Below, one piece after another: positions 26,580 to 49,529 of a stretch of DNA of 64,000 bases. How positions within the stretch are numbered: position 1 is the first letter of the stretch; every line of letters starts with the position of its first letter. The position numbers and the translations under genes were made by a program. The DNA is taken from assembly GCF_055900595.2 (NCBI RefSeq), contig NZ_JBVWEU010000002.1; one strand, written 5' to 3'. The notes below the pieces were generated by a model, which searched no databases, was not told where the DNA came from, and saw only the letters and a program-made list of their open reading frames with translations. This stretch comes from a plasmid.

Positions 26580-27248
26580 ATGACGATATCCATTTTTCAG
26601 GCTCAACCCTTTGAATTACCCTTTGATCCGTGCACAACGGCACTGATCATGATAGACATGCAACGTGATTTTGTCGAAGCAGGAGGGTTTGGAGAAGCAT
26701 TGGGTAATGATGTTTCACTGGTTCGCACGGCTATCGCACCATGTAAAGAAGTTCTGGCAGCCGCACGTCAAAAAGGAATTATGGTTATTCATACCCGTGA
26801 AGGCCATCGTGAAGACTTAAGCGACTGCCCATCAGCCAAACTGACGCGCGGCGGAAAAACCTTTATTGGTGAACCAGGACCGATGGGACGCATTCTGGTC
26901 AGGGGTGAAGCAGGTCATGACATCATTCCTGAACTGTATCCGGTGACAGGCGAACCTGTGATTGATAAACCCGGTAAAGGCGCTTTTTATCAAACCGACT
27001 TACATCTGATTTTGCAAAAGCGTGGTATCAAGACACTTATTGTTTGTGGCGTGACTACCGAAGTTTGCGTAACCACCACCGTGCGTGAAGCAAATGACCG
27101 TGGCTATGAATGCATCATACCGGAAGATTGCGTTGGCTCCTATTTCCCGGAATTCCAGAAATACGCCCTTGAGATGATCAAAGCACAAGGTGCCATTTTC
27201 GGTTGGGTTACTGATTCCAAAGCCATTATTGCAGGTCTGGAAGGCTAA
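26580..27248 (+). CDS. Isochorismatase-family cysteine hydrolase (amidase-type)
   Basis: Start taken at ATG 26580 (GGAG about 7 nt upstream); MIDMQRDF (Asp), DKPGKGAF (Lys) and LIVCGVTTEVCV (Cys) match the family catalytic triad pattern. Confidence 0.7.
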   Translation: MTISIFQAQPFELPFDPCTTALIMIDMQRDFVEAGGFGEALGNDVSLVRTAIAPCKEVLAAARQKGIMVIHTREGHREDLSDCPSAKLTRGGKTFIGEPGPMGRILVRGEAGHDIIPELYPVTGEPVIDKPGKGAFYQTDLHLILQKRGIKTLIVCGVTTEVCVTTTVREANDRGYECIIPEDCVGSYFPEFQKYALEMIKAQGAIFGWVTDSKAIIAGLEG

Positions 27249-27253
27249 CGCCG

Positions 27254-28114
27254 ATGGTACAGGTTACGCTTTGTGCATCGTCGTTGGGATATCTTTTCCC
27301 GCAGAATGAAACGCAAGATTTACGTCTACATAGCGCTTTTAAACATGCGGTAAATCTGTATTCAGACGCGGGAACATTCATCACTCTGTTGTGTGCGCAA
27401 ACGTATCTGAATCTCCCTGATGCTGCCAGAGTCTGGCTACCTGAATGTTGGGACTGGCGAAGAGAGATTGCCCATTCAGATCCCATTCAATTAACCCCAG
27501 GCTTACTGCGGACACCTCGATTTTGTGTGGCGCTCGATAACGCAACGCTCTGGCAGTCGCCATTTGTGGGGGGAATGCTGACTCTTGAGGCATTGCCTTT
27601 GGTTTTCCAGCACTACCCCACGATAGCATCGCAACGGCTTTTATTTTGTCTGGAGCATAACGTTCAAAGCACATTGCACCTGCCGGATAGTCTCACGCAC
27701 CAGGGATTAGATATTATGGAACATCCAGATGCGCTGGAACGCCAGGTACCCCAACTGATCGGCTTTGGTAAAGGCTTAACGCCCGATGGAGATGACTATT
27801 TGCTGGGCTATCTGGCAGCCCTCTGGTTATGGCAACTCCCTGCACCACTTGCCAATCATCAATACAGGTTGCAGAAGGCAATTGAACAACATGCACACAA
27901 CACCACGGATATAAGTCGTCATTATCTGCAACGTGCGCTTCAGGGACATTTTTCAGAACCGATTTGCCGGTTACTCGCACAACTGGTTGGGAGCGCATCG
28001 GCAATGACAATCGCATCCTGTACAGAACAGATCATGCAATTTGGCGCAACATCAGGAGTAAATTGCCTTGCAGGAATGCTGCATGGATTTCGAACCCTGA
28101 ACACCATGAATTGA
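27254..28114 (+). CDS. DUF2877-family protein (YlbF/YahE-like)
   Basis: 286 aa; same position relative to the FdrA-like gene as in cluster 2; motif GLTPDGDDYLLGYL shared with the 43104 paralog (GLTPSSDDYLVGL). Confidence 0.55.
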   Translation: MVQVTLCASSLGYLFPQNETQDLRLHSAFKHAVNLYSDAGTFITLLCAQTYLNLPDAARVWLPECWDWRREIAHSDPIQLTPGLLRTPRFCVALDNATLWQSPFVGGMLTLEALPLVFQHYPTIASQRLLFCLEHNVQSTLHLPDSLTHQGLDIMEHPDALERQVPQLIGFGKGLTPDGDDYLLGYLAALWLWQLPAPLANHQYRLQKAIEQHAHNTTDISRHYLQRALQGHFSEPICRLLAQLVGSASAMTIASCTEQIMQFGATSGVNCLAGMLHGFRTLNTMN

Positions 28115-28208
28115 TTTCAACCTTTTCTCCCGTAGCCCGTTTATGGGGCTACACGGGGATGCTTTGCCCGAATTTTGCTATCGGGCGGAATGGAACAGGC
28201 GTAACAGC

Positions 28209-29768
28209 ATGAAAGTTAAATATAAAGTTTTCAGTAATCTTTATCAGGACTCAGTTTCTCTGATGCAGATTTCCGCGCAAATCAGCAAGTTGCCCGGTAT
28301 TCAACAGGCCTCGGTCGTCATGGGAACACCCAATAATCTCGAGCAATTGCGCGATGCGGGTCTGGGTAACGAAATCAACGCCAGTCCCAATGATTTAGTG
28401 ATTGCAGTCATGGGTGAAGAAGATATTTGCAATGAAGCACTGCTACTGGCCCAGCAACGTCTGACCAGCAAACCCGATGATGAAACGGATTGTGGCATTA
28501 AATCACCGGAAAAGGTCAGCCTGGAAATGGCACTGGAAGCTGAACCCGAAGCCAACCTGGCACTCATTTCTGTACCGGGAGACTACGCCGCCGCCGAAGC
28601 AATTAAAGCGTTAAACCTCGGAATGAACGTGATGATGTTCAGCGATAACGTCAGTATCGGGCAGGAAAAATACATCAAAACGCTTGCCCGAGAACGTCAG
28701 CGCATCGTAATGGGACCTGACTGTGGAACCGCCATTGTTAACGGCATTCCGTTAGGCTTCGCTAATGTGGTGAAACGCGGAGCAATTGGTGTTATTGGCG
28801 CGTCAGGCACCGGGCTACAGGAAGTGACTTGCCGAATCGACCAGCTCGGAGCGGGTATTTCTCAGGCGTTGGGAACAGGCGGACATGATCTCAGTGAAGA
28901 GATTGGTGGAATATCAATGCTCTTTGCTTTAGATGCGCTGGCACAAGACGATGAAACTCACGTGATTGTGCTTATTTCAAAACCGCCTTCACCGATCGTT
29001 GCCCGGACTATTCTGGAGCGCGCCGAGGCTTGTGGAAAACCCGTGGTGGTGAATTTCCTCGGGGCGAATCCGCATGATCTGGCACGTCCCAATATCACTG
29101 CCGCCACCACACTTGCCAGCGCCGCCGACATCGCTGTGGCGTTACTGAATGATCAGCCACTTCCGGCTGTCGAGAACGAGGTTTCCTGCGACGATCTCAC
29201 AATGTTACAAAACGCCTGCCAAAGTCTGCCAGTCCATCGCCAGGCGATACGCGGTGTTTTCGCCGGAGGAACCTTCTGTTACGAAGCTCAGCTTATCTGC
29301 CAACAAAAGGGATTCCATGCCGCCTCCAATACGCCAGTTGCGGGTAATCGTGCTCTGGCAAATATCTGGCAAAGTGAAGATCATACACTGATTGATATGG
29401 GGGACGATGATTTCACCCGTGGCAAACCGCATCCAATGATCGACCCGACTCTGCGCAATCAACGTCTGCTCAACGAACTCAACGACTCACATACTGCCGT
29501 TGTGTTATTCGACCTTGTACTTGGTTATGGCACCTCCGCTACGCCTGTCAGCGAATTACTGGACCAACTTTCACACATCGACATGAATAATGCACCGTTG
29601 CTGATTGCCCACGTTTGCGGAACAGAAGCTGATCCGCAAATACGCAGTCAGCAGATAAGCTCACTACAAAATGCAGGCGTCATCATTGCCAACAGCAATG
29701 CACAGGCGGCGCTATGGGCCAGCACCGTTGCACAGACTCAGTTGCAGAAAAAGGAGCTAAATGCATGA
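28209..29768 (+). CDS. FdrA-like protein (acyl-CoA-synthetase/succinyl-CoA-synthetase-alpha fold)
   Basis: Start at ATG 28209 (MKVKYKVFSNLYQDSVSLMQIS...); clear paralog of ORF 43912-45459 (e.g. MGPDCGTAIVNG, GASGTGLQE, TRGKPHPMIDPT). Confidence 0.7.
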   Translation: MKVKYKVFSNLYQDSVSLMQISAQISKLPGIQQASVVMGTPNNLEQLRDAGLGNEINASPNDLVIAVMGEEDICNEALLLAQQRLTSKPDDETDCGIKSPEKVSLEMALEAEPEANLALISVPGDYAAAEAIKALNLGMNVMMFSDNVSIGQEKYIKTLARERQRIVMGPDCGTAIVNGIPLGFANVVKRGAIGVIGASGTGLQEVTCRIDQLGAGISQALGTGGHDLSEEIGGISMLFALDALAQDDETHVIVLISKPPSPIVARTILERAEACGKPVVVNFLGANPHDLARPNITAATTLASAADIAVALLNDQPLPAVENEVSCDDLTMLQNACQSLPVHRQAIRGVFAGGTFCYEAQLICQQKGFHAASNTPVAGNRALANIWQSEDHTLIDMGDDDFTRGKPHPMIDPTLRNQRLLNELNDSHTAVVLFDLVLGYGTSATPVSELLDQLSHIDMNNAPLLIAHVCGTEADPQIRSQQISSLQNAGVIIANSNAQAALWASTVAQTQLQKKELNA

Positions 29769-31189
29769 ATACCTTATTTAATCAGCCTTTGAAGGTCGTG
29801 AACGCGGGGCTACACAGTTTTGCTGACAATATTCAACATGCAGGAGGGCATGCTATATCCCTCAACTGGCAGCCGCCAGCACAAGGTGATATTGACACCG
29901 GTTTGGTTCTGGCGTCATTACTACGCCATCCACTGGTAGAAAGTGCCAACCAAATCGCCATGACACGTTATCTCGAAGCACAGCCCGTGTTGGTGGATGT
30001 CATGCTCGCTAAAGAAGCCATCCCCGAAATGGCTGAACAAAAACGCATTTTACACTCTGGTCCACCGATTGCCTGGGAAGATATGTGTGGTCCGGTAAAA
30101 GGGGCGATTATTGGTGCCATGCTGTACGAAGGCTGGGCTACAAGCCAGAAAGACGCAGAAAACCAGATAAACGCAGGCGAAATCGACCTTGCTCCTTGTC
30201 ATCATTATCACGCGGTTGGACCAATGGCAGGCATTATCAGCCCGTCGATGCCATTATGGGTGGTGGAAAACAAAACCAACGGCCATCGTACTTTTAGCAA
30301 TTTCAATGAGGGTCTGGGTAAGGTTCTCCGTTTTGGTGCCAATAACGATGAAGTTCTCAATCGTCTGGCCTGGATGCGTGATGAACTGGCGCCGGCCATG
30401 AAAGCAGCAATCGCACAACACGGCGAGCTGGAACTCAAGCCATTAATGGCGCAGGCGCTGCATATGGGGGATGAAGTTCATAACCGCAATGCTGCCGCTA
30501 CCGGTTTGCTGATTAAGCGCCTGCTCCCGGCATTGCTGGCCTGCTCTCTTCCACAGGAACATATCCAGCGCGTCGTGGCATTTATCACAGGTAACGATCA
30601 CTTCTTCCTCAATTTGTCGATGGCTGCCTGTAAAGCAATGATGGATGCCGCCGCCAATGTACCGTTCAGTTCAATGGTTACGGTGATGGCGCGTAACGGG
30701 GTGAATTTTGGTATTCGGCTTTCCGGTACTGGCGATCGCTGGTTTCAGGCTCCTGCCAATGCAGTTGAAGGTCTGTTCTTCCCCGGATTTGGCGTTGACG
30801 ACGCCGCTTCTGACCTGGGTGATAGCGCAATTACTGAAACCGCAGGTGTGGGTGGCTTCGCGATGGCGTCATCTCCGGCGATTGTTAAATTTGTGGGAGG
30901 CACCCCTGCCGATGCCACCAATAACAGCCGTCGGATGCAGGCAATCACCCTCGGCGGTAACCCCGCATTTACACTTCCAGCCCTCAATTTTGCCCCCACC
31001 GCAGCAGGTATTGATGCGTGTAAAGTGACCGATCGTGGCATTTTACCGGTCATCAATACGGGTATCGCCCACAAACAAGCGGGAGTCGGACAAATTGGTG
31101 CCGGGATCACCACTGCACCGATGGCCTGTTTTGTCGCTGCTGTACGTGAACTGGCGGAGATCGTCGCAAAGGAGAACCATCATGGTTAA
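29765..31189 (+). CDS. DUF1116-family protein (YlbE/YahG-like)
   Basis: Start ATG overlaps the upstream stop; paralog of 45459-46877 (LFNQPL..VN.G, HSGPPI.WE.MCG, GDSAITET.GVGGFAMA). Confidence 0.65.
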   Translation: MNTLFNQPLKVVNAGLHSFADNIQHAGGHAISLNWQPPAQGDIDTGLVLASLLRHPLVESANQIAMTRYLEAQPVLVDVMLAKEAIPEMAEQKRILHSGPPIAWEDMCGPVKGAIIGAMLYEGWATSQKDAENQINAGEIDLAPCHHYHAVGPMAGIISPSMPLWVVENKTNGHRTFSNFNEGLGKVLRFGANNDEVLNRLAWMRDELAPAMKAAIAQHGELELKPLMAQALHMGDEVHNRNAAATGLLIKRLLPALLACSLPQEHIQRVVAFITGNDHFFLNLSMAACKAMMDAAANVPFSSMVTVMARNGVNFGIRLSGTGDRWFQAPANAVEGLFFPGFGVDDAASDLGDSAITETAGVGGFAMASSPAIVKFVGGTPADATNNSRRMQAITLGGNPAFTLPALNFAPTAAGIDACKVTDRGILPVINTGIAHKQAGVGQIGAGITTAPMACFVAAVRELAEIVAKENHHG

Positions 31190-32138
31190 GCCACTGGCTG
31201 TCGTCGCGGTTGGCGGCAATGCGCTCATTCAGGACGATAAACGCAATAGTATTCCCGATCAATATGTTGCAGTAATGGAAAGCGTGCAGCATATCGTTGA
31301 TATGGTTGAAGCCGGATGGGAGCTGGTGCTAACCCATGGTAATGGCCCGCAGGTAGGCTTTATTCTGCGCCGCTCTGAACTTGCCAGTAACGAAGTTTCT
31401 CCGGTTCCTCTGGATTACGCCGTGGGTGATACCCAAGGCGCCATTGGATACATGTTCCAGAAAGCGCTGCATAACGAATTGGCTCGCCGTGGCATAAACA
31501 AACCGGTAATTGCCCTGGTGACACAAACGCGAGTCAGCCCATATGACGATGCTTTCGCCAGCCCCAGTAAACCGATTGGCGCGTTTCTTGATGAAGAAAC
31601 AGCACAACAACGCCAACAACAACTCGGCTGGACGCTGATGGAGGACGCCGGGCGTGGTTGGCGGCGTACAGTTCCCTCTCCTGCGCCACTGGAAATTATT
31701 GAGCACCACACCATCGCTCACCTTGTGCGCCAGGGATATCTGGTTATAGCCTGCGGCGGCGGCGGTATACCTGTGGTGCGAGACGGGCAACAACTGAAAG
31801 GTGTGGAAGCCGTGATCGATAAAGACCTGGCCTCCGCATTGCTCGCCAGTCAGTTAGGCGCTGATCTGCTGGTGATCCCCACCGGTGTAGAAAAAGTGGC
31901 GATTCACTTTGGTACACCACAACAACAATGGCTCGACGCTATCAGCGTCTACGAAGCTCAAACGCTGTTGCAGGAAGGTCAGTTTGGTGTCGGCAGTATG
32001 CAACCCAAAGTGGAAGCCATTATTGATTTCATCAATGCCAGCCAGCAACAAGGCAAACAGGCCAGCGGACTGATTACTTCACCGCAAACCATAAAAGCAG
32101 CCCTGGCACATCAGAGCGGAACATGGATAACCCTTTAA
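31182..32138 (+). CDS. Carbamate kinase
   Basis: Start at ATG 31182 (overlaps upstream gene by 8 nt); AVGGNAL ... THGNGPQVG ... ACGGGGIPVV motifs. Confidence 0.8.
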   Translation: MVKPLAVVAVGGNALIQDDKRNSIPDQYVAVMESVQHIVDMVEAGWELVLTHGNGPQVGFILRRSELASNEVSPVPLDYAVGDTQGAIGYMFQKALHNELARRGINKPVIALVTQTRVSPYDDAFASPSKPIGAFLDEETAQQRQQQLGWTLMEDAGRGWRRTVPSPAPLEIIEHHTIAHLVRQGYLVIACGGGGIPVVRDGQQLKGVEAVIDKDLASALLASQLGADLLVIPTGVEKVAIHFGTPQQQWLDAISVYEAQTLLQEGQFGVGSMQPKVEAIIDFINASQQQGKQASGLITSPQTIKAALAHQSGTWITL

Positions 32139-32154
32139 TTCTCTGGAGAACACA

Positions 32155-32544
32155 ATGACTACAACACTTTTAGCCGTTAACGGAACGCTGATGCGCGGTC
32201 TGGAACTCAACCCAAATATGCAAAAAGCTGGCGGTATTTTTGTCCGTGAAGACCGAACTGACGCCCATTACCGGTTATGGAGTATTAATGATCGTCATCC
32301 CGGAATGATCCGCGTGAATGAAGGAGGAGCACACGTAGACGTAGAAATCTGGCAACTGCCTCTGGCCAGTTTTGCCGAACTGTTAATGAACGAACCCGAA
32401 GGCCTGACCATTGGAAAAATCAAACTTGCCGATGGTAGCGAAGTACTGGGCGTACTGGCAGAAAGCTGGCTGACTGAAGGCCAGAAGGAGATTACAGCAC
32501 TGGGGGGCTGGCGCAAATACACCGGGAATTTTCACACGATGTAA
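32155..32544 (+). CDS. Small gamma-glutamyl-cyclotransferase-like (AIG2/allophanate-hydrolase C-domain-like) protein
   Basis: 129 aa; weak by-eye resemblance only. Confidence 0.4.
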   Translation: MTTTLLAVNGTLMRGLELNPNMQKAGGIFVREDRTDAHYRLWSINDRHPGMIRVNEGGAHVDVEIWQLPLASFAELLMNEPEGLTIGKIKLADGSEVLGVLAESWLTEGQKEITALGGWRKYTGNFHTM

Positions 32545-32569: not shown

Positions 32570-33790
32570 ATGCGTAAAGAAGATAATATGAATACGGCAT
32601 CAGGATTGCGTATTACCATGATTTTGCTGGGTATTGCCGTCACACCTGTGCTGTTGTCATCCTCAAGCCTCGGCAATCAACTTTCCAGTGGTAGTTTAAT
32701 TAGCGTCGTACTATTAGGCGGCGTCATTCTGACCTTACTTTCAGCCATCACCATTAGTGTGGGAGAAAAAGCCCGCCTGCCAACATACGGTATTGTGAAA
32801 TATTCATTTGGCGAAAAAGGGGCCATCGCCATTAATATTTTGATGGCTATAAGTCTGTTCGGCTGGATTGCCGTTACCGCTAATATGTTTGGTCATTCGG
32901 TGCATGACTTACTGGCGCAGAATGGGATTGAAGCGCCACTGGCACTGTTAGTGGCAGCTGGTTGTGTCATTTTTGTCGCCTCTACGGCCTTTGGTTTTTC
33001 CATTCTGGGCAAAGTTGCCCAGGTCGCCGTGCCGGTTATCGCACTGGTGCTGTGTTATATACTCTATGTGGCAACCCATACCGAAGTATCAGCGCCAGCA
33101 GCGATAGCGGAGATGAGTACAGGTGTCGCCGTTTCCACCGTTGTTGGCACTATTATTGTGCTGGTTGCTACACTTCCCGACTTCGGTAGTTTTGTACATA
33201 ACCGAAAACATGCTCTGATTGCCGCAGGTATGACGTTTCTGGTTGCCTACCCTCTGCTATACTGGGCGGGTGCAACGCCGAGTGCCATTAGCGGCCAGGG
33301 CTCTTTACTGAATGCTATGGCAGTATTCGGTGCGGTTATGCCTGCAGCACTGTTGCTGATATTCGCCTGCGTCACCGGTAATGCGGGCAATATGTTCCAG
33401 GGGACGTTGGTAGTTTCCACACTGCTTAGCCGCTTTCCCAAATGGCAGATTACCGTTGCGCTGGGTATCCTTTCCGCCATCGTAGGCAGTATGGATATTA
33501 TGGCGTGGTTTATTCCGTTTCTGCTGTTCCTGGGTATCGCGACTCCCCCAGTTGCCGGAATTTATATCGCTGACTTTTTCCTTTATCGCCGTAATGGCTA
33601 TCAAGAGTCGGTGTTAACTCAGGAGTCACAGGTTAAAGTACTGACATTCGCTGCATGGATCACAGGCACAGCGGTTGGCTTTATGACCGTAAAAGGCTTA
33701 TTCACCCTGACGACGATCCCTTCAGTTGACTCCATTCTGGTGGCATGTATCGCGTATGCGATTCTCAGTCGGGCAAGTCAACACCGCTAA
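32570..33790 (+). CDS. NCS1-family permease (cytosine/purine/hydantoin-type)
   Basis: 406 aa, about 12 hydrophobic segments; resemblance to CodB-type permeases. Confidence 0.6.
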   Translation: MRKEDNMNTASGLRITMILLGIAVTPVLLSSSSLGNQLSSGSLISVVLLGGVILTLLSAITISVGEKARLPTYGIVKYSFGEKGAIAINILMAISLFGWIAVTANMFGHSVHDLLAQNGIEAPLALLVAAGCVIFVASTAFGFSILGKVAQVAVPVIALVLCYILYVATHTEVSAPAAIAEMSTGVAVSTVVGTIIVLVATLPDFGSFVHNRKHALIAAGMTFLVAYPLLYWAGATPSAISGQGSLLNAMAVFGAVMPAALLLIFACVTGNAGNMFQGTLVVSTLLSRFPKWQITVALGILSAIVGSMDIMAWFIPFLLFLGIATPPVAGIYIADFFLYRRNGYQESVLTQESQVKVLTFAAWITGTAVGFMTVKGLFTLTTIPSVDSILVACIAYAILSRASQHR

Positions 33791-33867: not shown

Positions 33868-34758
33868 ATGTTCATCTCAGACGAAACGATTCGAATTATT
33901 CATCTGGTCGCCAGACACCAGAACATCACCACCGCAGCCGAACAGTTAAATAAAGTCCCTTCTACTATCAGTTACACCCTGAAGAAAGCGGAAGAAACCC
34001 TGGGCGTTGAACTGTTCATTCGTAAGGGACGATATATTGAATTATCTCCGGCGGGGAGTTACTTCATCGAACATAGCAAAAATATTCTCCGCGATCTGGA
34101 TGCATTAAAGCGCAACACAGTGCTGATTCACGATGGTATTGAGCGTGAACTGACAATTGCGGTGAACAATATTATACCTGGTGATTTTCTGGTGTCATTT
34201 ATTCAAGATTTTGAACGGCAATTCACATCAACAACACTGACGGTAGATATTGAAGTATACAACGGCTGCTGGGATGCGCTGTACAGTAAACGTGCTGATC
34301 TGGTCTACGGTGCTCCTCATGCAGTACCAAGCAGTGAAGGCATCATTAGCGAACCGGTCGGACAAATAGAATGGGATTTTGTCGTCAGCCCACTTCATCC
34401 ACTGGCAGTGAAGCGGAATCCATTAGAAAATAGTGAATTGCGTCATTATCCTGCGGTTTGTATCCGGGATACCTCCGTTAACTTCCCCCCAATGCAAGCC
34501 TGGTTGTTGGAAGGACAAAAACCTATTTTTGTTCCTGACTTCGCCATGGCAATCAGCTTAATAGAACAAAACGTCGGTATTGGTTATATTCCACATCATC
34601 TGGCATTGCCGTTATTGAACAGAGGTAAATTGCTTAAAAAGCCAATGCGCGAACATAAACACGCCACCAAGTTATTTCTTGCCGCTCGTTCCGATGGTAT
34701 AGGAAAAGCCTGTCTGTGGTGCATGTCGTATTTAAGAAATAAGCAATTCATGGCGTAA
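33868..34758 (+). CDS. LysR-family transcriptional regulator
   Basis: 296 aa; N-terminal HTH (TAAEQLNKVPSTISYTLKKAEETLGVELFIRKGR). Confidence 0.75.
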   Translation: MFISDETIRIIHLVARHQNITTAAEQLNKVPSTISYTLKKAEETLGVELFIRKGRYIELSPAGSYFIEHSKNILRDLDALKRNTVLIHDGIERELTIAVNNIIPGDFLVSFIQDFERQFTSTTLTVDIEVYNGCWDALYSKRADLVYGAPHAVPSSEGIISEPVGQIEWDFVVSPLHPLAVKRNPLENSELRHYPAVCIRDTSVNFPPMQAWLLEGQKPIFVPDFAMAISLIEQNVGIGYIPHHLALPLLNRGKLLKKPMREHKHATKLFLAARSDGIGKACLWCMSYLRNKQFMA

Positions 34759-35016: not shown

Positions 35017-35191
35017 GGAGCATGAATGATGGAGTATGTAGAAGTATCGGAGAAAATTTGATATTCTTCTTGATAAAATGAGATTTTCTGCACATATAAG
35101 CATACAGGAGATTCATAGTACAAAAATAAAAAATCATAATAATAAACTTAAATTGACATAACTATAATCAACTTTGAACAGGAATATATTA

Positions 35192-41095: not shown

Positions 41096-42025
41096 TCACG
41101 CTCGATGCATCAAATCCTGATAAATCCCCGTCAGTATTCCTTGTAAGCTAAATTCTCTTTTTATCCACTGAGTGACTTGACCGCTTGCCGAATGCCTGGT
41201 TGCCAACAGCATTCGTGAATCCTGACGTGGGTTGTGGATCTGCCGTGTCACCAGCAATGACTTTTCCATCGCTTCACGCACCATATAGTCTGGCAGAAAA
41301 CCGATTCCCTCCCCCAAGATCTGGCACTGAAGCTTAGTATTAAAGTCGGGAACCAGAATCGACTCTTGCCCGTGTAACAGCCAGCCGACTTTTTTGTTTA
41401 TAGTGTTTGCAGTGTCTTCCACCATGATGTTCGGGTACAGACGTAACTGACTCTCAGAAATGGGCTCAGGAATAAACGCCAGCGGATGAGCCGGAGAAAT
41501 CGCGAACAACCAACGAATCATGCCGATTTCAATGTAATCAATTCCACCACCGTCCAGTAACGTATCGGGCGCGCCAATGGCGATATCAGCCTGGTTATTA
41601 ATGAGTGAATCCCAGACGCCATTATACACCTCTGTAGTAATAGCTATCTGGCAGGTTGGAAAGTGTTCCCTGAGCACTTGCAGAAGCCGAGCTGTATGCT
41701 GAGGGGTATACAACAGTTGATTAATACAAATGCGCACCCGGGATTTAATTCCCTGAGCGATGGCATCAACTCTACGTATGATGGAGTGGTAATCGTTGAG
41801 CAGGTCAGTTGCTTTGCAAAAAAGGTAGTGCCCGGGCTCGGTCAGCTCAATGCTACGGGTAGTTCGGGTAAAAAGCACCACGTCAAGCCCCATTTCCATA
41901 CGCTTGATAGTGTAACTAATTGCCGATGTGGTTAAGCCCAGTTCCTTCGCCGCCTTGCTGAAACTTCTATAGCGGGCAGCCATAGTAAATGCCAGTAAGT
42001 TTTCTTCCGTAAATATTGAATTCAT
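41096..42025 (-). CDS. LysR-family transcriptional regulator, divergent from cluster 2
   Basis: Start taken at internal ATG 42025 (MNSIFTEENLLAFTMAARYRSFSKAAKELGLTTSAISYTIKRME...); HTH plus LysR substrate-binding domain. Confidence 0.75.
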   Translation of the reverse strand: MNSIFTEENLLAFTMAARYRSFSKAAKELGLTTSAISYTIKRMEMGLDVVLFTRTTRSIELTEPGHYLFCKATDLLNDYHSIIRRVDAIAQGIKSRVRICINQLLYTPQHTARLLQVLREHFPTCQIAITTEVYNGVWDSLINNQADIAIGAPDTLLDGGGIDYIEIGMIRWLFAISPAHPLAFIPEPISESQLRLYPNIMVEDTANTINKKVGWLLHGQESILVPDFNTKLQCQILGEGIGFLPDYMVREAMEKSLLVTRQIHNPRQDSRMLLATRHSASGQVTQWIKREFSLQGILTGIYQDLMHRA

Positions 42026-42412: not shown

Positions 42413-43018
42413 ATGTCCAATAAAGAACTCATTACAGAATTTCTGCTGGCGGCAGAACAAGGTAATTCCGATGGATTAAAATCATGCCTTGATAAAAAGG
42501 TTGATATTAATGCGACTAACCGCGAGGGGCGTACTGCAATTATTATTGCCAGTCTGAATAAACATTATGACTGCGTTTCTTTATTGATTTCCGCAGGTGC
42601 TGATATTAATAAACAAGATCAAACTTGTTTTAATCCCTTCCTGATTGGCTGCCTGAATAATGATTTAACACTGTTGCGTACGGTATTACCGGCTAACCCC
42701 GACCTTAATTGCCTAACCCGTTTTGGCGGTGTTGGTATTACACCTGCCTGCGAAAAAGGCCATGTCGAGATTGTACGTGAATTGCTGATGCGTACTGATA
42801 TCAATGTCAACCATACTAATTTTGTTGGCTGGACGCCGCTCCTAGAGGCCATCGTGCTGAATGACGGCGGTGAAAAGCAGCAGGAGATCGTCAAACTGTT
42901 GCTTGAGCATGGCGCAAACCCGCACATGACGGATAAATACGGTAAAACCCCGCTGGAGCTGGCGCGAGAAAAAGGCTACCACAAAATTGCCGAGTTGCTG
43001 ATTTCGGCTGGAGCCTGA
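42413..43018 (+). CDS. Ankyrin-repeat protein (YahD-like)
   Basis: 201 aa; repeated ...G.TAL..A...GH...V..LL..GAD.N.. units. Confidence 0.75.
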   Translation: MSNKELITEFLLAAEQGNSDGLKSCLDKKVDINATNREGRTAIIIASLNKHYDCVSLLISAGADINKQDQTCFNPFLIGCLNNDLTLLRTVLPANPDLNCLTRFGGVGITPACEKGHVEIVRELLMRTDINVNHTNFVGWTPLLEAIVLNDGGEKQQEIVKLLLEHGANPHMTDKYGKTPLELAREKGYHKIAELLISAGA

Positions 43019-43103: not shown

Positions 43104-43952
43104 ATGGGCCAGGTTGAACAGGTTTTTTCCCATGCGGTAAATCTGTTAATACCTGAACAGCAGCGACTGCTGACGTTACTGAGTGAGGATTGTGATAACG
43201 CACCTAACAGTTGTCGTTTAGCACTGACACATTATGAAGACCTTTTTCACCCCGGTGAACAGGTCAATTTTAGCGGGTCTGGAATAACTGTTGGAAATGA
43301 TAAATGGATAGAAATAACCGGTTGTCAGATGTGGCGAATACCACGGTGGACATCTGATTCAGCAAGCCTTGCCAAAGTCGGCTGGCAGCATTGGGAAGAG
43401 TTTATCCGCCAACAACTAAGAAGCAACGACACATTATTTCTGTACCAGGGTGACAATCCATTTTATCAGGAAATTTCTCGCCAATTACTCAACCGCCGAA
43501 AAAATTTGCTGAAGGCGTTGTGTACAGGAGAAAACATCACTGCGGCAGTCAACCAGTTAATTGGTCTTGGAATAGGGCTGACGCCATCATCGGATGATTA
43601 TTTAGTAGGTTTAAGCACTATTTTATTTATTCAAGGACATCCACTAAGGAAGTATAGATACGATTTCTTAGCAGCATTACAACTTGCAGGAAATAACATA
43701 ACGCTTCTCAGCAAAATAACGTTAGAGGAAGCATTTAATCAGCGTTATCGGGAAAGAGTCGGACGGCTACTGAACCAATTTATTACTGAGCCACAACCCA
43801 TTTCTACGCAATATGTTACTGACATAAAAAATATAGGCTCAAGTTCTGGATGCGACATGCTGTATGGCATGGCGGATGCCTGCGCCCTGAGCCACAGGTC
43901 CGGAGGTAATTATGTCAATCAGGATAGTTGTAAAAAAAAACACGTATTTTGA
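43104..43952 (+). CDS. DUF2877-family protein (YahE/YlbF-like)
   Basis: 282 aa; paralog of 27254-28114. Confidence 0.55.
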   Translation: MGQVEQVFSHAVNLLIPEQQRLLTLLSEDCDNAPNSCRLALTHYEDLFHPGEQVNFSGSGITVGNDKWIEITGCQMWRIPRWTSDSASLAKVGWQHWEEFIRQQLRSNDTLFLYQGDNPFYQEISRQLLNRRKNLLKALCTGENITAAVNQLIGLGIGLTPSSDDYLVGLSTILFIQGHPLRKYRYDFLAALQLAGNNITLLSKITLEEAFNQRYRERVGRLLNQFITEPQPISTQYVTDIKNIGSSSGCDMLYGMADACALSHRSGGNYVNQDSCKKKHVF

Positions 43953-45459
43953 TTCTGTTTCACTGATGTCTATCTCCACGCGCGCAAATAAGCTTGATGG
44001 AGTTGAGCAGGCATTTGTTGCTATGGCGACAGAGATGAATAAGGGGGTGCTGAAGAATCTCGGTCTGCTGACCCCTGAGCTGGAAGAGGCGAAAAGTGGC
44101 GATCTGATGATTGTCATTAAAGGTACCAGCGAGGAGGCGAACGAGCGGACGCTAATAGCGATTGATGAGCTGTTTGCGCATAAAGAACAGGGAGGCCAGC
44201 ACGAAGCACGCTATGCCACGATTGCCAGTGCGAAGAAGCATGCTCCAGAGAGTAATCTGGCGGTGATCTCTGTCAATGGCCTGTTTGCTGCTCGTGAAGC
44301 TCGTCAGGCACTACAAAATAACCTCAATGTTATGCTGTTTTCTGACAACGTCTCTCTTGAGGACGAGCTGGAACTCAAGCATCTGGCACATGAAAAAGGG
44401 TTGTTGATGATGGGGCCTGATTGTGGAACCGCCATCATTAACGGCGCAGCGTTGTGTTTTGGCAATGCAGTGCGTCGCGGCAACATCGGAATCATTGGTG
44501 CCTCCGGTACGGGTAGCCAGGAGCTGAGCGTACGCATTCACGAATTTGGCGGCGGGATTTCCCAGCTGATTGGGACAGGTGGACGCGATATGAGTGAAAA
44601 AATTGGCGGCCTGATGATGCTTGACGCGATTAGCATGCTGGAGGCCGATCCACAAACTGAGATCATTACGCTTATATCCAAACCTCCTGCACCAGCGGTA
44701 GCCCGTAAGGTGCTGGAACGTGCGCGCACCTGTCACAAGCCTGTGGTGGTGTGTTTCCTCGGACGTGAGTCCACCCCTGCGGATGAAGAAGGCCTACAGT
44801 TTGCCCGCGGTACTAAAGAGGCTGCCTTGAAAGCGGTACTGTTGACTGGTGTGAAAAAAGAGAGTCTGGATTTGCATCCGCTCAACTGGCAGCTGATTGA
44901 AGAGGTTCGCTCCCGTCTGACTCCACAACAAAAGTATATCCGTGGCCTGTTCTGTGGTGGCACGTTATGCGATGAAGCGATGTTTACTGCCATGGAAAAA
45001 CTCTCGGATGTGTATAGCAATATTCACCCGAATCCGGCGTTCCGCCTTACAGATCTCAACCGTAGCGTGGCGCATACCTTCCTCGATTTCGGCGATGATT
45101 ATTTTACCAACGGCAAACCACATCCGATGATCGATCCCACCAATCGCATTACCCGGCTCTTGCAGGAAGCACAGGATCCTGAAGTTGGCGTGATCGTGAT
45201 GGACTTCATTCTTGGATTTGGATCACATGAAGATCCGGTTGGAGTGATGCTGGATACAATTGTTGAAGCCAAAGAAATTGCTGCCGCAGACGGTCGCCCG
45301 CTTGAGATCCTCGGCTATGTGCTGGGAACCGACCTTGATACACCGTCGCTGAAAAAACAGTGTCAGATGTTGACCGATGCCGGGGTTATTTGGGCAAGCA
45401 GTAGCACCAACACCGGATTACTGGCACGTGAATTTATATTTAAAGGGGAGGAAGGCTGA
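43912..45459 (+). CDS. FdrA-like protein (YahF-like)
   Basis: 515 aa; paralog of 28209-29768. Confidence 0.7.
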   Translation: MSIRIVVKKNTYFDSVSLMSISTRANKLDGVEQAFVAMATEMNKGVLKNLGLLTPELEEAKSGDLMIVIKGTSEEANERTLIAIDELFAHKEQGGQHEARYATIASAKKHAPESNLAVISVNGLFAAREARQALQNNLNVMLFSDNVSLEDELELKHLAHEKGLLMMGPDCGTAIINGAALCFGNAVRRGNIGIIGASGTGSQELSVRIHEFGGGISQLIGTGGRDMSEKIGGLMMLDAISMLEADPQTEIITLISKPPAPAVARKVLERARTCHKPVVVCFLGRESTPADEEGLQFARGTKEAALKAVLLTGVKKESLDLHPLNWQLIEEVRSRLTPQQKYIRGLFCGGTLCDEAMFTAMEKLSDVYSNIHPNPAFRLTDLNRSVAHTFLDFGDDYFTNGKPHPMIDPTNRITRLLQEAQDPEVGVIVMDFILGFGSHEDPVGVMLDTIVEAKEIAAADGRPLEILGYVLGTDLDTPSLKKQCQMLTDAGVIWASSSTNTGLLAREFIFKGEEG

Positions 45460-46877
45460 TGAGCCAGACACTGTTTAATCAGCCGCTGAACGTTATTAAT
45501 GTCGGTATCGAAATGTTCAGCGATGACATGAAAAAGCAGAATGTACCGGTAACCCAACTTGACTGGACACCGCCAGGCCAAGGAAACATACAAGTGGTAA
45601 CGGCACTGGACGACATTGCCGCTTCACCACTGGCAGACAAAATTGCAGCTGCTAATCAGCTGGCGCTGGAACGCATTATCCAGTCGCATCCTGTGCTAAT
45701 TGGCTATGATCAGGCGATCAACGTCGTGCCGGGTATGACCCGTAACACTATCCTTCACGCCGGGCCGCCAATCCACTGGGAAAAAATGTGCGGCGCAATG
45801 AAGGGCGCAGTAACCGGGGCTCTGGTATTTGAAGGACTGGCGAAAGATCTGGATGATGCCGCCGAACTAGCTGCTTCAGGTGAAATCATCTTCTCTCCGT
45901 GCCACGAACATGACTGTGTCGGCTCAATGGCGGGTGTCACGTCTGCATCGATGTTTATGCACATCGTCGAGAACAAAACCTATGGAAACCGCGCATATAC
46001 CAATATGAGCGAGCAGATGGCAAAGATCCTGCGTATGGGCGCTAACGACCAGAGCGTTATAGAGCGTCTTAACTGGATGCGAGATGTACTGGGACCTATG
46101 TTGCGCGATGCTATGAAGCTGGCGGGCGAAATCGATCTGCACTTGATGTTAGCGCAGGCGCTGCATATGGGCGATGAGTGCCATAACCGCAACAACGCCG
46201 GGACGGCGCTGCTGATTCAGACGCTGACGCCGTGGATTATTCAGACTGGCTACCCTGTTGAGCAGCAGCGTGAGGTGTTCGAGTTTGTCCTCAGTAGTGA
46301 TTACTTCTCAGGACCAACATGGATGGCAATGTGTAAAGCCGCAATGGACGCTGCGCACGGCATTGAATACAGCACCGTGGTGACAACGATGGCACGCAAT
46401 GGTGTTGAGTTCGGTCTTCGTATTAGCGGTTTGCCGGGCCAGTGGTTTACCGGTCCGGCGCAGCAGGTGATTGGGCCGATGTTTGCGGGCTATAAGCTAG
46501 AGGATTCCGGACGTGATATCGGTGATAGTGCAATTACCGAAACCTACGGCGTTGGCGGTTTCGCTATGGCGACGGCACCAGCTATTGTGTCACTGGTGGG
46601 CGGAACAGTTGAGGAAGCTATTGATTTCTCACGTAAAATGAGAGAAATCACTCTCGGAGAAAACCCCAACGTCACCATTCCCCTGCTTGGTTTTATGGGC
46701 GTACCGACCGCTATCGATATTACACGTGTAGGCAGTACAGGCATTCTGCCGGTAATTAACACAGCCATTGCGCACAAAGACGCAGGGATCGGCATGATCG
46801 GCGCAGGAATTGTTCACCCGCCGTTCACTTGTTTTGAAAAGGCGATCCTCAACTGGCGTGACCACTACTGCCAATAA
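45459..46877 (+). CDS. DUF1116-family protein (YahG/YlbE-like)
   Basis: 472 aa; start overlaps upstream stop; paralog of 29765-31189. Confidence 0.65.
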   Translation: MSQTLFNQPLNVINVGIEMFSDDMKKQNVPVTQLDWTPPGQGNIQVVTALDDIAASPLADKIAAANQLALERIIQSHPVLIGYDQAINVVPGMTRNTILHAGPPIHWEKMCGAMKGAVTGALVFEGLAKDLDDAAELAASGEIIFSPCHEHDCVGSMAGVTSASMFMHIVENKTYGNRAYTNMSEQMAKILRMGANDQSVIERLNWMRDVLGPMLRDAMKLAGEIDLHLMLAQALHMGDECHNRNNAGTALLIQTLTPWIIQTGYPVEQQREVFEFVLSSDYFSGPTWMAMCKAAMDAAHGIEYSTVVTTMARNGVEFGLRISGLPGQWFTGPAQQVIGPMFAGYKLEDSGRDIGDSAITETYGVGGFAMATAPAIVSLVGGTVEEAIDFSRKMREITLGENPNVTIPLLGFMGVPTAIDITRVGSTGILPVINTAIAHKDAGIGMIGAGIVHPPFTCFEKAILNWRDHYCQ

Positions 46878-46989
46878 CAATAACCGGGGCTAACGCAGTT
46901 AGCCCCACAGTAGCGGAAAACGTTGTTTACCTTCAGGGCTGGGCGATCTCCATGATCGCAAACGATGCTTAACCTGTTAAGGAGATTCC

Positions 46990-48540
46990 ATGAACAGCAT
47001 AAAACTAGAATGGAAACGTGGTGACTGGGCGGCTTACTTTGGACTGATGACCAACAATCTGACTAACCTGCTGACAATGATGGGTCTGCTAATTTTTGTC
47101 GTCGGAATCCCTACTGAAATTGTCTATGGACGCATTGCGCCTGCCTTTGGTCTTGCAGTGCTGGCGGCCAGTGTCTGCTACTCCTGGTTTGGTCTACAGA
47201 TGGTGAAGAAAACCGGTCGTAGCGATGTAACGGCGCTGCCGTCTGGACCGAGCGCACCCTCAATCTTTACCGTGACATTCCTGGTGCTGATGCCGGTTTA
47301 TCAGCAAACCAAAGATGCCAACTTTGCTATTCAGATAGGATTGGTGTGGTGCTTTGTCGAAGCGTTGATCCTGGTCGGTGGCTCCTTCCTGGGTGAGACT
47401 ATCCGCAAGATGATCCCGCGTACAGTGCTGCTTTCTTGTCTGTCCGGACTGGGGTTATTACTGCTGGCAATGAACCCGATGCTGCAAGCGTTCGAAGCGC
47501 CGACAGTTTCTTTCATCGTCCTGTTATTGATCTTCATTAACTGGTTCGGTAAGAAGCCGATTTTTCCCCATATTCCTACCGGTTTGCTGTTGCTGATTGC
47601 TGGTACGTCCCTAGCGTGGATATCCGGTTTACAAAGCCCGGAAGACATTAAAGCGTCGATGTCTTCCTTCGGCTTCAACCCGCCGGAAATTCATGTAAGG
47701 AGCTTCCTGCAAGGTTTGCCGCACGCTCTGCCATATCTGGCTTCTGCAGTTCCTTTGGGCCTGGCTAACTACATTTTTGACCTCGAGAACATTGAAAGTG
47801 CGCACGCGGCTGGTGATGAATACAACACCCGTAAGGTCATGATGGCGAACGGCTTTGCCTCCATGCTCGGTTGCATGCTGGGTAATCCGTTCCCGGTAAC
47901 CGTATATGTTGGGCATGCAGGCTGGAAAGCTATGGGCGCTAGTATCTGCTATACCCTCGCATCAGGCATCACTATGTTCCTGGTGCCATTGTTTGGGTTG
48001 GGCGCGTTTATGCTCGCCATTATTCCCATGACTGCTATAGTGCCAATTCTGGTTTTTATCGGTGTGGTAACCGCCAATCAGGTGGTGCGAGAAACTCCTA
48101 AAGTCGAGGTTCCCGTCATTTTCATCTGTCTGTTCCCATGGGTCGCCAACTGGGCATTGACCATCGTTAACAGCGTGATGGGCGCAGCCGGAACATCCGC
48201 TGAGAAACTTGGTAGCGACCTGTTGCACAGCAAAGGCGTCTATTACGATGGACTGATGCATCTGGGAAGCGGTGCACCGCTGGCCAGCATGCTGTGGGGA
48301 TGCATTGCTATCTTTGCCATTATGAATAAGCCGCTGCGCGGGGCGATAGCTGCATCCTTTGGAGCACTGTTATCGCTGTTTGGCGTGATTCACTCCCCAG
48401 CGGTTGGCTTTGCGGAAGGCAGCTCGATTGTGTTTGTTGTGGCCTACCTGATGATGCTTGCTATGTTTGCCCTCAAGCATGTTATTGATAGCCGTGAAAC
48501 AGTGGCTGCGTCTGAGCAGGAAGAGACTAAAACGACCTGA
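46990..48540 (+). CDS. Polytopic permease (nucleobase/NCS2- or AzgA-like; family uncertain)
   Basis: 516 aa with 12 or more hydrophobic segments; sits between the DUF1116 and carbamate kinase genes. Confidence 0.5.
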   Translation: MNSIKLEWKRGDWAAYFGLMTNNLTNLLTMMGLLIFVVGIPTEIVYGRIAPAFGLAVLAASVCYSWFGLQMVKKTGRSDVTALPSGPSAPSIFTVTFLVLMPVYQQTKDANFAIQIGLVWCFVEALILVGGSFLGETIRKMIPRTVLLSCLSGLGLLLLAMNPMLQAFEAPTVSFIVLLLIFINWFGKKPIFPHIPTGLLLLIAGTSLAWISGLQSPEDIKASMSSFGFNPPEIHVRSFLQGLPHALPYLASAVPLGLANYIFDLENIESAHAAGDEYNTRKVMMANGFASMLGCMLGNPFPVTVYVGHAGWKAMGASICYTLASGITMFLVPLFGLGAFMLAIIPMTAIVPILVFIGVVTANQVVRETPKVEVPVIFICLFPWVANWALTIVNSVMGAAGTSAEKLGSDLLHSKGVYYDGLMHLGSGAPLASMLWGCIAIFAIMNKPLRGAIAASFGALLSLFGVIHSPAVGFAEGSSIVFVVAYLMMLAMFALKHVIDSRETVAASEQEETKTT

Positions 48541-48566
48541 ATAGCCTGCAAACGGAAGATAATTCT

Positions 48567-49529
48567 ATGAAAGAACTTGTGGTCGTTGCCATTGGTGGCA
48601 ACAGCATTATCAAAGATAACGCCAGCCAGTCGATTGAGCATCAGGCGGAGGCGGTGAAGGCCGTCGCCGATACGGTTCTGGAAATGCTGGCTTCCGATTA
48701 CGACATTGTGCTGACCCACGGCAACGGGCCGCAGGTCGGTCTGGATTTACGCCGCGCGGAGATAGCCCACGAGCGCGAAGGGCTACCCTTAACGCCGCTG
48801 GCGAACTGTGTGGCGGATACGCAAGGCGGCATTGGCTATCTGATCCAGCAGGCGCTGAACAACCGGCTGGCGCCTCACGGCGAGAAAAAAGCCGTCACCG
48901 TGGTGACTCAGGTGGAAGTGGATAAAAACGATCCGGGGTTTGTCCATCCCACCAAGCCCATCGGTGCATTCTTTAGTGAAAACCAGCGTGATGAACTACA
49001 AAAGGCAAACCCTGACTGGCGTTTTGTTGAAGATGCCGGACGGGGCTATCGCCGCGTGGTCGCCTCGCCGGAACCGAAACGTATTGTCGAAGCACCTGCC
49101 ATTAAGACTCTGATCCAGCAAGGCTTTGTGGTGATTGGCGCGGGCGGCGGTGGCATTCCGGTGGTGCGTACTGACGCAGGGGATTACCAAAGCGTGGACG
49201 CGGTTATCGACAAAGATCTCTCTAGCGCGCTACTGGCTCGCGAAATTCACGCCGACATTCTGGTGATCACCACCGGCGTGGAAAAAGTGAGTATTCATTT
49301 TGGGAAACCCAACCAGCATGCACTGGATACAGTGGATGTCCTAACGATGGCCCGTTACATGCAGGAGGGTCACTTCCCGCCTGGGAGTATGTTACCGAAG
49401 ATTCTTGCCAGTCTGGAGTTCCTGGAACGTGGAGGTAAAAGAGTGATTATCACCACGCCTGAATGCCTGTCCGCGGCACTGCGTGGCGAAACAGGCACCC
49501 ATATTATCCACTCCCAAGAGGAGACGTAA
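48567..49529 (+). CDS. Carbamate kinase (YahI-like)
   Basis: 320 aa; AIGGNSI ... THGNGPQVG ... GAGGGGIPVV; paralog of 31182-32138. Confidence 0.8.
   Translation: MKELVVVAIGGNSIIKDNASQSIEHQAEAVKAVADTVLEMLASDYDIVLTHGNGPQVGLDLRRAEIAHEREGLPLTPLANCVADTQGGIGYLIQQALNNRLAPHGEKKAVTVVTQVEVDKNDPGFVHPTKPIGAFFSENQRDELQKANPDWRFVEDAGRGYRRVVASPEPKRIVEAPAIKTLIQQGFVVIGAGGGGIPVVRTDAGDYQSVDAVIDKDLSSALLAREIHADILVITTGVEKVSIHFGKPNQHALDTVDVLTMARYMQEGHFPPGSMLPKILASLEFLERGGKRVIITTPECLSAALRGETGTHIIHSQEET

Follow-up and report, generated by a model that had tools for sequence, protein, structure and literature searches.

A plasmid stretch of 64,000 nucleotides (NCBI RefSeq assembly GCF_055900595.2, contig NZ_JBVWEU010000002.1; the window, here and below, means this whole stretch) raises the question of why a single replicon should carry two related gene clusters, each linked to a carbamate kinase, between positions 26580 and 49529. 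The initial annotation, made from the letters alone, saw in them two diverged sets of paralogs serving related pathways with distinct substrates that converge on carbamoyl phosphate and ATP, rather than a recent duplication. Our analysis favors, with a probability of roughly 0.6, the reading that the clusters are anciently separated modules of the AllFGH plus AllK type, cluster 2 being a foreign version of the yah operon of Escherichia coli K-12 and cluster 1 probably a triuret route, brought together through insertion sequence (IS)-mediated assembly on IncF plasmids of the type known from avian pathogenic E. coli (APEC).

The oxamic transcarbamylase that acts in anaerobic allantoin catabolism was identified in 2024 as AllFGH, with YbcF/AllK as its catabolic carbamate kinase (PMC11326118, PMC9843812); it splits oxalurate (H2N-CO-NH-CO-COO-) with phosphate to carbamoyl phosphate and oxamate (PMC11326118). 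Each plasmid cluster has the composition of such a module, combining an FdrA/AllF, a DUF1116/AllG and a DUF2877/AllH protein with an adjacent carbamate kinase, and orthologs of the cluster proteins carry PF06545 and PF11392. Open reading frame (ORF) calling and translation recovered both co-directional, carbamate-kinase-linked gene sets where the initial annotation had placed them; the end of the region at 49529 omits nothing, and the LysR genes of cluster 1 (to 34758) and cluster 2 (from 41096) belong to the units. The genes are listed here with their coordinates in the window (aa, amino acids; PGAP, the NCBI Prokaryotic Genome Annotation Pipeline):

26580..27248, + strand: cluster 1 isochorismatase-like cysteine hydrolase, TrtA-type, 222 aa; best PDB relatives TrtA 6XIX/6XJE
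27254..28114, + strand: cluster 1 AllH-like protein (DUF2877), 286 aa; Pfam PF11392 AllH, E 3.3e-26
28209..29768, + strand: cluster 1 AllF-like protein (FdrA family), 519 aa; NCBIfam NF004760 score 491.6 (cutoff 433)
29765..31189, + strand: cluster 1 AllG-like protein (DUF1116), 474 aa; DUF1116 by PGAP, 47% identical to K-12 YlbE
31182..32138, + strand: cluster 1 carbamate kinase, 318 aa; TIGR00746 arcC 365.2 (cutoff 358.25), NF009007 375.7 (cutoff 266)
32155..32544, + strand: cluster 1 stand-alone AH_C protein, 129 aa; matches positions 472-595 of 600 in the allophanate hydrolase model, E 1.5e-30
32570..33790, + strand: cluster 1 NCS1-family permease (likely), 406 aa; NCBIfam cytosine permease model and TIGR00800 ncs1, below cutoff
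33868..34758, + strand: cluster 1 LysR regulator of the PunR/AllS subgroup, 296 aa; NCBIfam PunR 275.8 and AllS 205.3, both below cutoff
41096..42025, - strand: cluster 2 LysR regulator, YahB ortholog, 309 aa, divergent from the operon; 84.5% to YahB, AllS model 268 bits (below cutoff)
42413..43018, + strand: cluster 2 ankyrin-repeat protein, YahD ortholog, 201 aa; 71.6% to YahD
43104..43952, + strand: cluster 2 AllH-like protein (DUF2877), YahE ortholog, 282 aa; 52.6% to YahE, DUF2877 by PGAP, orthologs with PF11392
43912..45459, + strand: cluster 2 AllF-like protein, YahF ortholog, 515 aa; 83.1% to YahF, NF004760 489.9 (cutoff 433)
45459..46877, + strand: cluster 2 AllG-like protein, YahG ortholog, 472 aa; 90.0% to YahG, yah clade of the AllG tree
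46990..48540, + strand: cluster 2 permease, 516 aa; predicted 7+7 UraA/SLC26 fold (AlphaFold2 model and Foldseek)
48567..49529, + strand: cluster 2 carbamate kinase, YahI ortholog, 320 aa; 93.0% to YahI, NF009007 629 (cutoff 266)
49530..49559, + strand: yahJ remnant, the first ~30 bp; blastn homology to K-12 stops at 49559

All 15 ORFs are intact and of full length compared with distant orthologs, and the genes of cluster 1 are co-directional with tiny gaps or overlaps (AllF/AllG by 4 bp, AllG/carbamate kinase by 8 bp).

Are the two clusters the result of a recent duplication? The core proteins are homologous and share the motifs MGPDCGTAI.NG, GASGTG.QE and GDSAITET.GVGGFAMA, found in both copies as first described, and global alignment of cluster 1 against cluster 2 gives identities of 24.8% for AllH, 43.8% for AllF, 47.2% for AllG, 49.2% for the carbamate kinases and 29.4% for the LysR proteins, so that the clusters are about as far apart from one another as from K-12 AllFGH/AllK, to which they show 39-47%. 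At the DNA level blastn recovers two weak segments only (64.5% over 358 bp and 76.8% over 69 bp). A recent duplication, for which near-identity would be expected, can therefore be excluded, since identities between paralogs reach only 25-49% and the DNA can scarcely be aligned; the initial annotation was right on this point. Cluster 1 is about equally far from the Yah proteins (25-50%) and from AllFGH/AllK (25-47%), its AllH-like protein being 25% identical to K-12 YlbF as well as to its cluster 2 counterpart, and its AllF-like protein 41.6% identical to K-12 FdrA/AllF. In E. coli, the AllFGH-type family divides into three or more deep lineages, and every lineage has conserved partners of its own.

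A separate observation concerns the border between the AllF and AllG genes. The C-terminal ~42 residues of K-12 FdrA/AllF have their homologous counterpart at the N-terminal end of both plasmid AllG proteins (clusters 1 and 2) and of YahG (E 1e-6 to 1e-8); the sites lie at 29765-29900 and 45459-45610 of the window and, for the 3' end of K-12 fdrA, at 17200-17348 of comparison locus L003. Such a shift of the gene boundary between lineages implies a physical interaction of the two proteins.

Do the lineages then stand for different pathways? We scanned one genome per GTDB species with the AllG alignment, which yielded 80 loci whose neighbourhoods were annotated by local BLAST against a reference set, and calculated a neighbour-joining tree of AllG; the context counts given here refer to the 27 loci of the cluster 1 clade, from many phyla, with at least 6 kb of flanking sequence on both sides. 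The two plasmid AllG copies fall into different clades, each with its own neighbourhood conserved across phyla. The yah clade holds cluster 2, K-12 YahG, Brevibacillus, Janthinobacterium, one of the Avibacterium copies and one copy from a metagenome-assembled genome (MAG) of the Mycobacteriaceae, and has the ankyrin protein and the 516-aa permease as its companions. The cluster 1 clade has 49 leaves (Enterobacterales, Burkholderiales, Mycobacteriaceae, Nitrospira, Chloroflexota, Rhodospirillales and others), and its context consists of the isochorismatase-like hydrolase (24/27), AH_C or an allophanate hydrolase (19/27) and the carbamate kinase (26/27), with the ankyrin protein in none of the 27. 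The full cluster 1 order, including the NCS1 permease and the LysR gene in synteny, is kept in Serratia oryzae, Edwardsiella hoshinae, Budvicia aquatica, Silvimonas and Paraburkholderia; loci of the Caballeronia type show the same order, with LysR detected only in one of them (L042). All-versus-all clustering of the unannotated ORFs revealed no other recurrent enzyme near cluster-1-type modules, only regulators and divergent AllH proteins.

These separate clades and neighbourhoods support the initial view of two related pathways that both feed carbamoyl phosphate to a carbamate kinase, the difference in substrates being suggested by the context. The transporter families, which had been taken to set the pathways apart, fail to do so: NCS1 occurs in nine of the 27 loci of the cluster 1 clade and a relative of the 516-aa permease in another nine. 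Outside the enterobacteria and Burkholderiales, cluster-1-type modules use this relative, 38-40% identical to the 516-aa permease, in place of NCS1, and transporter type therefore does not discriminate between the pathways. The claim of different accessory enzymes holds for cluster 1 with its hydrolase and AH_C protein, but not for cluster 2, in which the ankyrin-repeat protein is the sole extra protein and yahJ is reduced to the 30-bp remnant.

An obvious alternative is that both clusters are additional sets of oxamic transcarbamylase and carbamate kinase, redundant in oxalurate catabolism and backing the chromosomal allFGHK genes of anaerobic allantoin use. The four core proteins are 25-47% identical to AllF, AllG, AllH and AllK, and a study of comammox contigs takes allFGHK homologs beside trtA/biuH as oxalurate genes (PMC12625717). 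Both LysR proteins resemble AllS and PunR. The latter two are purine-related regulators. Birds excrete uric acid, and allantoin and oxalurate should be abundant where urate is. Homologs of allB, allC, allD and allE, however, are absent from both clusters and from all 80 related loci, each clade has partners of its own, the hosts already possess allFGHK, and the about equal distances between the three lineages fit a long-standing functional separation, which together make redundancy an improbable explanation.

The partners of cluster 1 suggest a substrate. Among PDB entries, its cysteine hydrolase ranks closest to TrtA (6XIX/6XJE; 269 bits, 58% identity), followed by BiuH (6AZO; 243 bits, 54%) and, at a distance, RutB (109 bits), and alignment to 6XIX shows that the D24-K129-C162 triad and the contacts E72, K132 and Q202 are conserved. 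TrtA and BiuH are separated by six positions (F35/Y, N41/Y, A134/S, E160/D, Y187/T and I205/V; PMC7948467); the cluster 1 protein has the TrtA state at six of the six and the BiuH state at none, and it has the length of TrtA, without the N-terminal extension of BiuH. A BiuH identity was rejected on this signature and on the score, the match being full-length but reaching 279.8 against the NCBIfam equivalog cutoff of 370, and a RutB-like identity on score. The only BiuH-type hydrolase among the loci of the cluster 1 clade is a second copy in a Nitrospira MAG (L025). Of the canonical neighbours of TrtA, neither biuH nor atzF nor trtB was found in the window, which holds the AH_C domain protein only. 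The TrtA-type signature is seen in every AllFG-linked homolog of the hydrolase; these homologs have the TrtA residue at four of the six positions, with A or S at 134, E or H at 160 and Y or F at 187, H160 and F187 marking a group from Firmicutes.

In five Firmicutes loci (L055, L057, L062, L066 and L083) the genes are arranged as PucR, permease, hydrolase, second permease, AllH, AllF, AllG and carbamate kinase. Their hydrolase is the H160/F187 variant, in place of the E160 and Y187 of TrtA, and may have a different substrate.

The second partner is the 129-aa AH_C protein, which corresponds to the C-domain of allophanate hydrolase without the amidase-signature N-domain. A near-identical E. coli ortholog has a structure (PDB 5C5Z), and the C-domains of the allophanate hydrolases 4ISS and 4GYR match the protein at E ~1e-11. 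Its homolog is a stand-alone protein of ~130 aa in 18 loci, and in seven loci a full-length allophanate hydrolase stands beside AllFG; three of these seven score 790-817, above the TIGR02713 equivalog cutoff of 511. A literature search on the allophanate hydrolase C-domain gave nothing usable. In several MAGs of Proteobacteria (L027, L032, L033, L035, L044 and L084) an allophanate hydrolase of 620-789 aa is encoded ~1-3 kb upstream of AllF on the opposite strand. The 406-aa permease of cluster 1 stays below cutoff with all models (CodB 148 bits, cutoff 326; TIGR00800 58 bits, cutoff 353; the NCS1-related CytX model likewise), and an Avibacterium ortholog carries PF02133; these matches make it a likely member of the NCS1 family.

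How could these proteins work together? By the logic of the family, a three-protein, non-classical carbamoyltransferase would cleave an N-acyl-urea with phosphate to release carbamoyl phosphate, which a catabolic carbamate kinase would turn into ATP, CO2 and NH3. TrtA turns triuret into 1-carboxybiuret (H2N-CO-NH-CO-NH-COO-), whose half-life before decay to biuret is ~20 min, and in the known triuret pathway carboxybiuret is processed by TrtB, BiuH and AtzF (PMC7948467). TrtA is highly active on triuret and discriminates about 10^4-fold against biuret. In cluster 1, the TrtA-type hydrolase would first convert triuret to 1-carboxybiuret and NH3, a reaction shown for TrtA itself; the AllFGH-like enzyme would then split carboxybiuret with phosphate into carbamoyl phosphate and allophanate, which would be a new activity; the carbamate kinase would make ATP, as shown for AllK; the AH_C protein would handle an N-carboxy intermediate derived from allophanate, for which other taxa would use a full allophanate hydrolase; and the NCS1 permease would import the substrate, with the PunR/AllS-like LysR protein regulating the operon. 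We propose the phosphorolysis of carboxybiuret because this compound equals oxalurate plus one NH and is thus a close structural analog, and it is the simplest connecting reaction since the modules hold a TrtA-like enzyme, an allophanate-handling protein and a carbamate kinase, and neither BiuH nor TrtB. Comammox contigs with allFGHK beside trtA/biuH are without the carboxybiuret decarboxylase gene trtB (PMC12625717), which fits this model. Our literature search found no paper proposing the reaction, which we offer tentatively, with the odds somewhat against it. It is less likely than not, though conceivable, that cluster 1 encodes a carboxybiuret (or allophanate):phosphate carbamoyltransferase that replaces TrtB and BiuH and gains ATP from polyurets arising in uric acid oxidation, that the yah-type module handles a second ureide, and that both modules form one network. 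Here the yah-type module, together with its permease of the unclassified 7+7 type, would take biuret, allophanate or another acyl-urea, and such a network would explain why the modules adjoin on APEC plasmids, in Avibacterium paragallinarum and in the Mycobacteriaceae MAG.

Several points weigh against the triuret route and the reading of which it is part. To our knowledge, the phosphorolysis of carboxybiuret is without precedent for any AllFGH-like enzyme, and AllFGH is the sole characterised member of its enzyme class that we know of. The cluster 1 hydrolase is only 58% identical to TrtA as against 54% to BiuH, and specificity was found to depend on residues of the second shell, no single mutation being able to switch it (PMC7948467), so that a related substrate, for example another acyl-urea, is possible. 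The E. coli version of cluster 1 has the C-domain of allophanate hydrolase only, and the proposed route does not account for the fate of allophanate there. AllH was detected in 13 of the 27 loci of the cluster 1 clade, a count that partly reflects the limit of sensitivity at ~25% identity. Cluster 2 is without yahJ and may be incomplete. The comammox study, moreover, takes allFGHK next to trtA/biuH as a co-located but separate oxalurate pathway (PMC12625717). Finally, scans of the two clusters for promoters and terminators yielded no more hits than expected from shuffled sequence and carry no weight here.

Where does cluster 2 come from? By blastn its DNA aligns collinearly with that of the K-12 yah locus at 69-89% identity, with the order yahB and yahD-E-F-G-I kept. 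Since the identity is only 69-89%, its source was not a K-12-type E. coli chromosome. The two loci differ in that cluster 2 has a 1.55-kb permease gene between yahG and yahI, a place taken in K-12 by the small ORF yahH alone, and in that cluster 2 is without yahC and has yahJ cut to 30 bp; by tblastn neither yahC nor yahH nor yahJ was found in the window, save for this remnant. The same method gave no trace of the permease in the K-12 yah locus, and the idea of a permease remnant there was rejected on that blank result. The yahJ remnant reads IKESDRRREFL where YahJ has MKESNSRREFL, its start codon is changed to ATT and transposase fragments follow; this is an IS-associated truncation, which marks the end of the captured yah segment. 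As part of the explanation favored here, and with the same confidence, we regard cluster 2 as an ortholog or xenolog of K-12 yahB-yahI that was probably acquired horizontally and represents an ancestral form retaining the permease. A literature search on yah gene function gave nothing usable.

Yah-type modules elsewhere are variations on this gene set. Aeromonas has the exact plasmid arrangement (LysR, then ankyrin protein, AllH, AllF, AllG, permease and carbamate kinase), and Janthinobacterium has the same genes with LysR downstream. The Enterobacter module has in addition an amidohydrolase of the YahJ type and is without AllH; those of Brevibacillus and Neobacillus include a small deaminase of the cytidine deaminase fold, and Brevibacillus and Bosea also have a PucR regulator. 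The ankyrin gene heads the modules of Brevibacillus, Janthinobacterium, Avibacterium, Aeromonas and Enterobacter, and in Bosea and Neobacillus it takes the form of a fusion of ankyrin and tetratricopeptide repeats. Because the core module is without a cytoplasmic hydrolase, its substrate is probably imported ready for phosphorolysis, and the substrate of cluster 2 is presumably an imported ureide that needs no prior hydrolysis in the cytoplasm.

Two further features of the yah genes may be mentioned. The start of K-12 YahJ resembles a twin-arginine translocation signal (SRREFL...AHA), a sequence pattern that suggests a periplasmic amidohydrolase and a preparatory step in that compartment. In cluster 2, the 112-bp gap from the AllG-like gene to the permease gene contains a strong GC-rich hairpin of 10 bp (46885-46907), which could be an internal attenuator or a site of RNA processing.

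What kind of transporter is the 516-aa permease? The initial label, NCS2/AzgA-like as opposed to the NCS1 permease of cluster 1, stands at the level of the fold and is not borne out by sequence: the protein has no Pfam match at E <= 10, no NCBIfam match and no PDB match by phmmer, PF00860 and PF00916 have no match in 34 members of the family, and one of the 120 homologs listed has a precomputed match to PF00860. Homologs 62-88% identical are spread over Proteobacteria and Firmicutes, with examples from Enterobacter, Aeromonas, Providencia, Janthinobacterium, Bosea, Brevibacillus, Paenibacillus, Photobacterium and Pasteurellaceae, and are labeled by different sources as xanthine permease, AGZA family or SulP. 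With hhalign, the match to the AzgA-type GhxQ is no more than suggestive (E 3.8e-4, probability 36%, 236 collinear columns), UacT is matched at E 0.58, and comparisons with single K-12 transporters were weak. An AlphaFold2 model from 34 sequences (predicted local distance difference test score 87.2, predicted template modelling score 0.82) shows short strands in transmembrane segments TM3 and TM10, and Foldseek retrieves with probability 1.0, at 11-16% identity, SVCT1, UraA, AZG1/2, SLC26Dg, BicA, prestin and the SLC4-like Bor1, none of them clearly closest. The permease thus belongs to a distinct, unannotated and highly conserved family, predicted to have the 7+7 UraA fold and tightly linked to AllFG modules.

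Is the pairing of the two clusters on a plasmid an accident? The window belongs to the IS-rich part of an APEC-type IncF plasmid, and large IncF plasmids of avian and other extraintestinal E. coli match it at 99.9-100%, among them pST95-32-2, APEC O2-211 and the p1ColV plasmid of IMT5155. In the annotated record NZ_CP043952.1 the two clusters are flanked by IS fragments, a RepFII replicon, an eit-like ABC transporter and bacteriocin genes, and the PGAP names are generic ('acyl-CoA synthetase FdrA', 'DUF1116', 'DUF2877', 'cysteine hydrolase', and 'hypothetical protein' for the permease). A PLSDB search with the whole 23-kb region was swamped by IS matches and only records with at least 80% coverage were counted; by this measure the two-cluster stretch is present, at least 80% of it in one piece, in at least 63 plasmids. 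Each cluster is found at >=99% identity in ~120-150 complete E. coli records, and in 1,559 of 5,426 complete E. coli genomes (~28%) the chromosome holds a copy of cluster 1 that is 90-95% identical in nucleotide sequence; K-12 is without cluster 1. This chromosomal copy is the region GR29 of APEC BEN2908, described as uncharacterised (PMC12928451). A literature search on ColV plasmids with carbamate kinase gave nothing usable.

The same two module types also adjoin elsewhere. On the chromosome of Avibacterium paragallinarum (CP173231.1 1193696-1215216, our locus L008, positions 5487-19721) they are immediate neighbours, in the order LysR, ankyrin protein, AllF, AllG and permease (506 aa), then LysR, TrtA-like hydrolase, AllF, AllG, AH_C and NCS1, with one AllH and one carbamate kinase common to both, and in the Mycobacteriaceae MAG L085 both AllFG pairs lie together. 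In view of these cases the adjacency on the plasmid may reflect functional cooperation, not chance. The pair could instead be hitch-hiking cargo, that is, chromosomal fragments captured by IS elements, one of them truncated, with no current function on the plasmid and adjacent by an accident of mosaicism: fragments of IS2, IS1, IS3, IS100, ISL3 and IS66 crowd the region, its GC content is patchy and cluster 2 is cut inside yahJ. Against such an origin stand the 15 intact ORFs, the conservation of the arrangement at >=99% identity in over 100 plasmids, the adjacency in Avibacterium paragallinarum and the MAG, and the match of cluster 2 to the complete modules of Aeromonas and Janthinobacterium, which are likewise without yahJ, and we consider it unlikely.

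Other genes of the window may be noted. Upstream of cluster 1 (18585-22625) lie genes for a substrate-binding protein, a FecCD-type permease, an ATP-binding cassette (ABC) ATPase and a protein of the major facilitator superfamily, which match the eit-like genes of NZ_CP043952.1. At 36156-37292 lies a chimeric ORF, which starts as an IS2-type transposase (InsD-like) in its N-terminal part and continues in frame as the ATPase domain from the C-terminal end of an ABC exporter; PGAP calls the pieces a truncated IS3-family transposase and an 'ATP-binding cassette domain-containing protein', and we take them as probably the remains of a bacteriocin exporter gene. Between the clusters, at 35174-35581 and 38303-39004 (-), the annotation of the reference record places a cytochrome b562 gene of low GC content and a gene of the ProQ/FinO family that includes a lysine-rich linker, which have no obvious tie to either cluster.

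The weakest alternative, a Rut-like pyrimidine pathway as suggested for GR29 (PMC12928451), in which the NCS1 permease imports a pyrimidine, a RutB-like hydrolase frees carbamate from a ureido-acid and the rest recovers nitrogen, can appeal to CodB as the best named relative of the permease (26.5% identity, and 31.8% of the hydrolase to RutB; PMC12928451), but is very improbable given the scores and TrtA signature of the hydrolase, the lack of RutA/C/D/E/F-like genes conserved nearby, the non-NCS1 permeases in as many of the 27 loci as NCS1, and the link to allophanate hydrolase, which has no place in Rut chemistry.

Returning to the two anciently separated modules, the enzyme family, cluster 2 as the yah operon and cluster 1 as an uncharacterised region are already known. 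Compared with the literature searched, the clade-specific contexts across phyla, the TrtA signature, the link to allophanate with the proposed reaction, and the permease family are new. Triuret is a product of urate oxidation and an impurity of urea fertiliser, and a possible new ATP-yielding nitrogen pathway could bear on the nutrition of pathogens in uricotelic hosts and on the turnover of polyurets in soils. The modules are carried by virulence plasmids of avian E. coli and occur also in a second pathogen of poultry, Avibacterium paragallinarum; that both well-documented cases of adjacency come from poultry pathogens invites an ecological reading in terms of the host, which is speculation.

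How do the clusters compare with known systems? With AllFGH/AllK of the allF operon they share the three protein families, the adjacent carbamate kinase, the tightly packed operon with overlapping genes and the presumed logic of converting a ureide and phosphate to ATP; they differ from it by identities of 25-47%, by the absence of allantoin genes near the plasmid clusters, and in that each cluster has a transporter, a regulator and accessory proteins of its own. The 516-aa permease is predicted to have the 7+7 inverted-repeat core/gate fold in common with transporters of the NAT/NCS2, AzgA and SulP/SLC26 families, at a sequence identity of 11-16%. Contigs of comammox Nitrospira and ammonia-oxidising archaea (PMC12625717; our loci L024 and L025) likewise combine a TrtA/BiuH-type hydrolase with AllFGH, AllK and sometimes codB. 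The module has been read as pyrimidine-related in the GR29 paper (PMC12928451) and as two separate pathways in the comammox study (PMC12625717), and neither has the AllFGH-like enzyme acting on the product of the hydrolase. With the triuret pathway of Herbaspirillum sp. BH-1 (PMC7948467), cluster 1 shares a TrtA-like first enzyme and a protein related to allophanate hydrolase; in contrast to that pathway, it is without BiuH, TrtB and the amidase domain of AtzF and has the AllFGH-like proteins and a carbamate kinase in their place, an exchange that would conserve the carbamoyl group as ATP instead of hydrolysing it.

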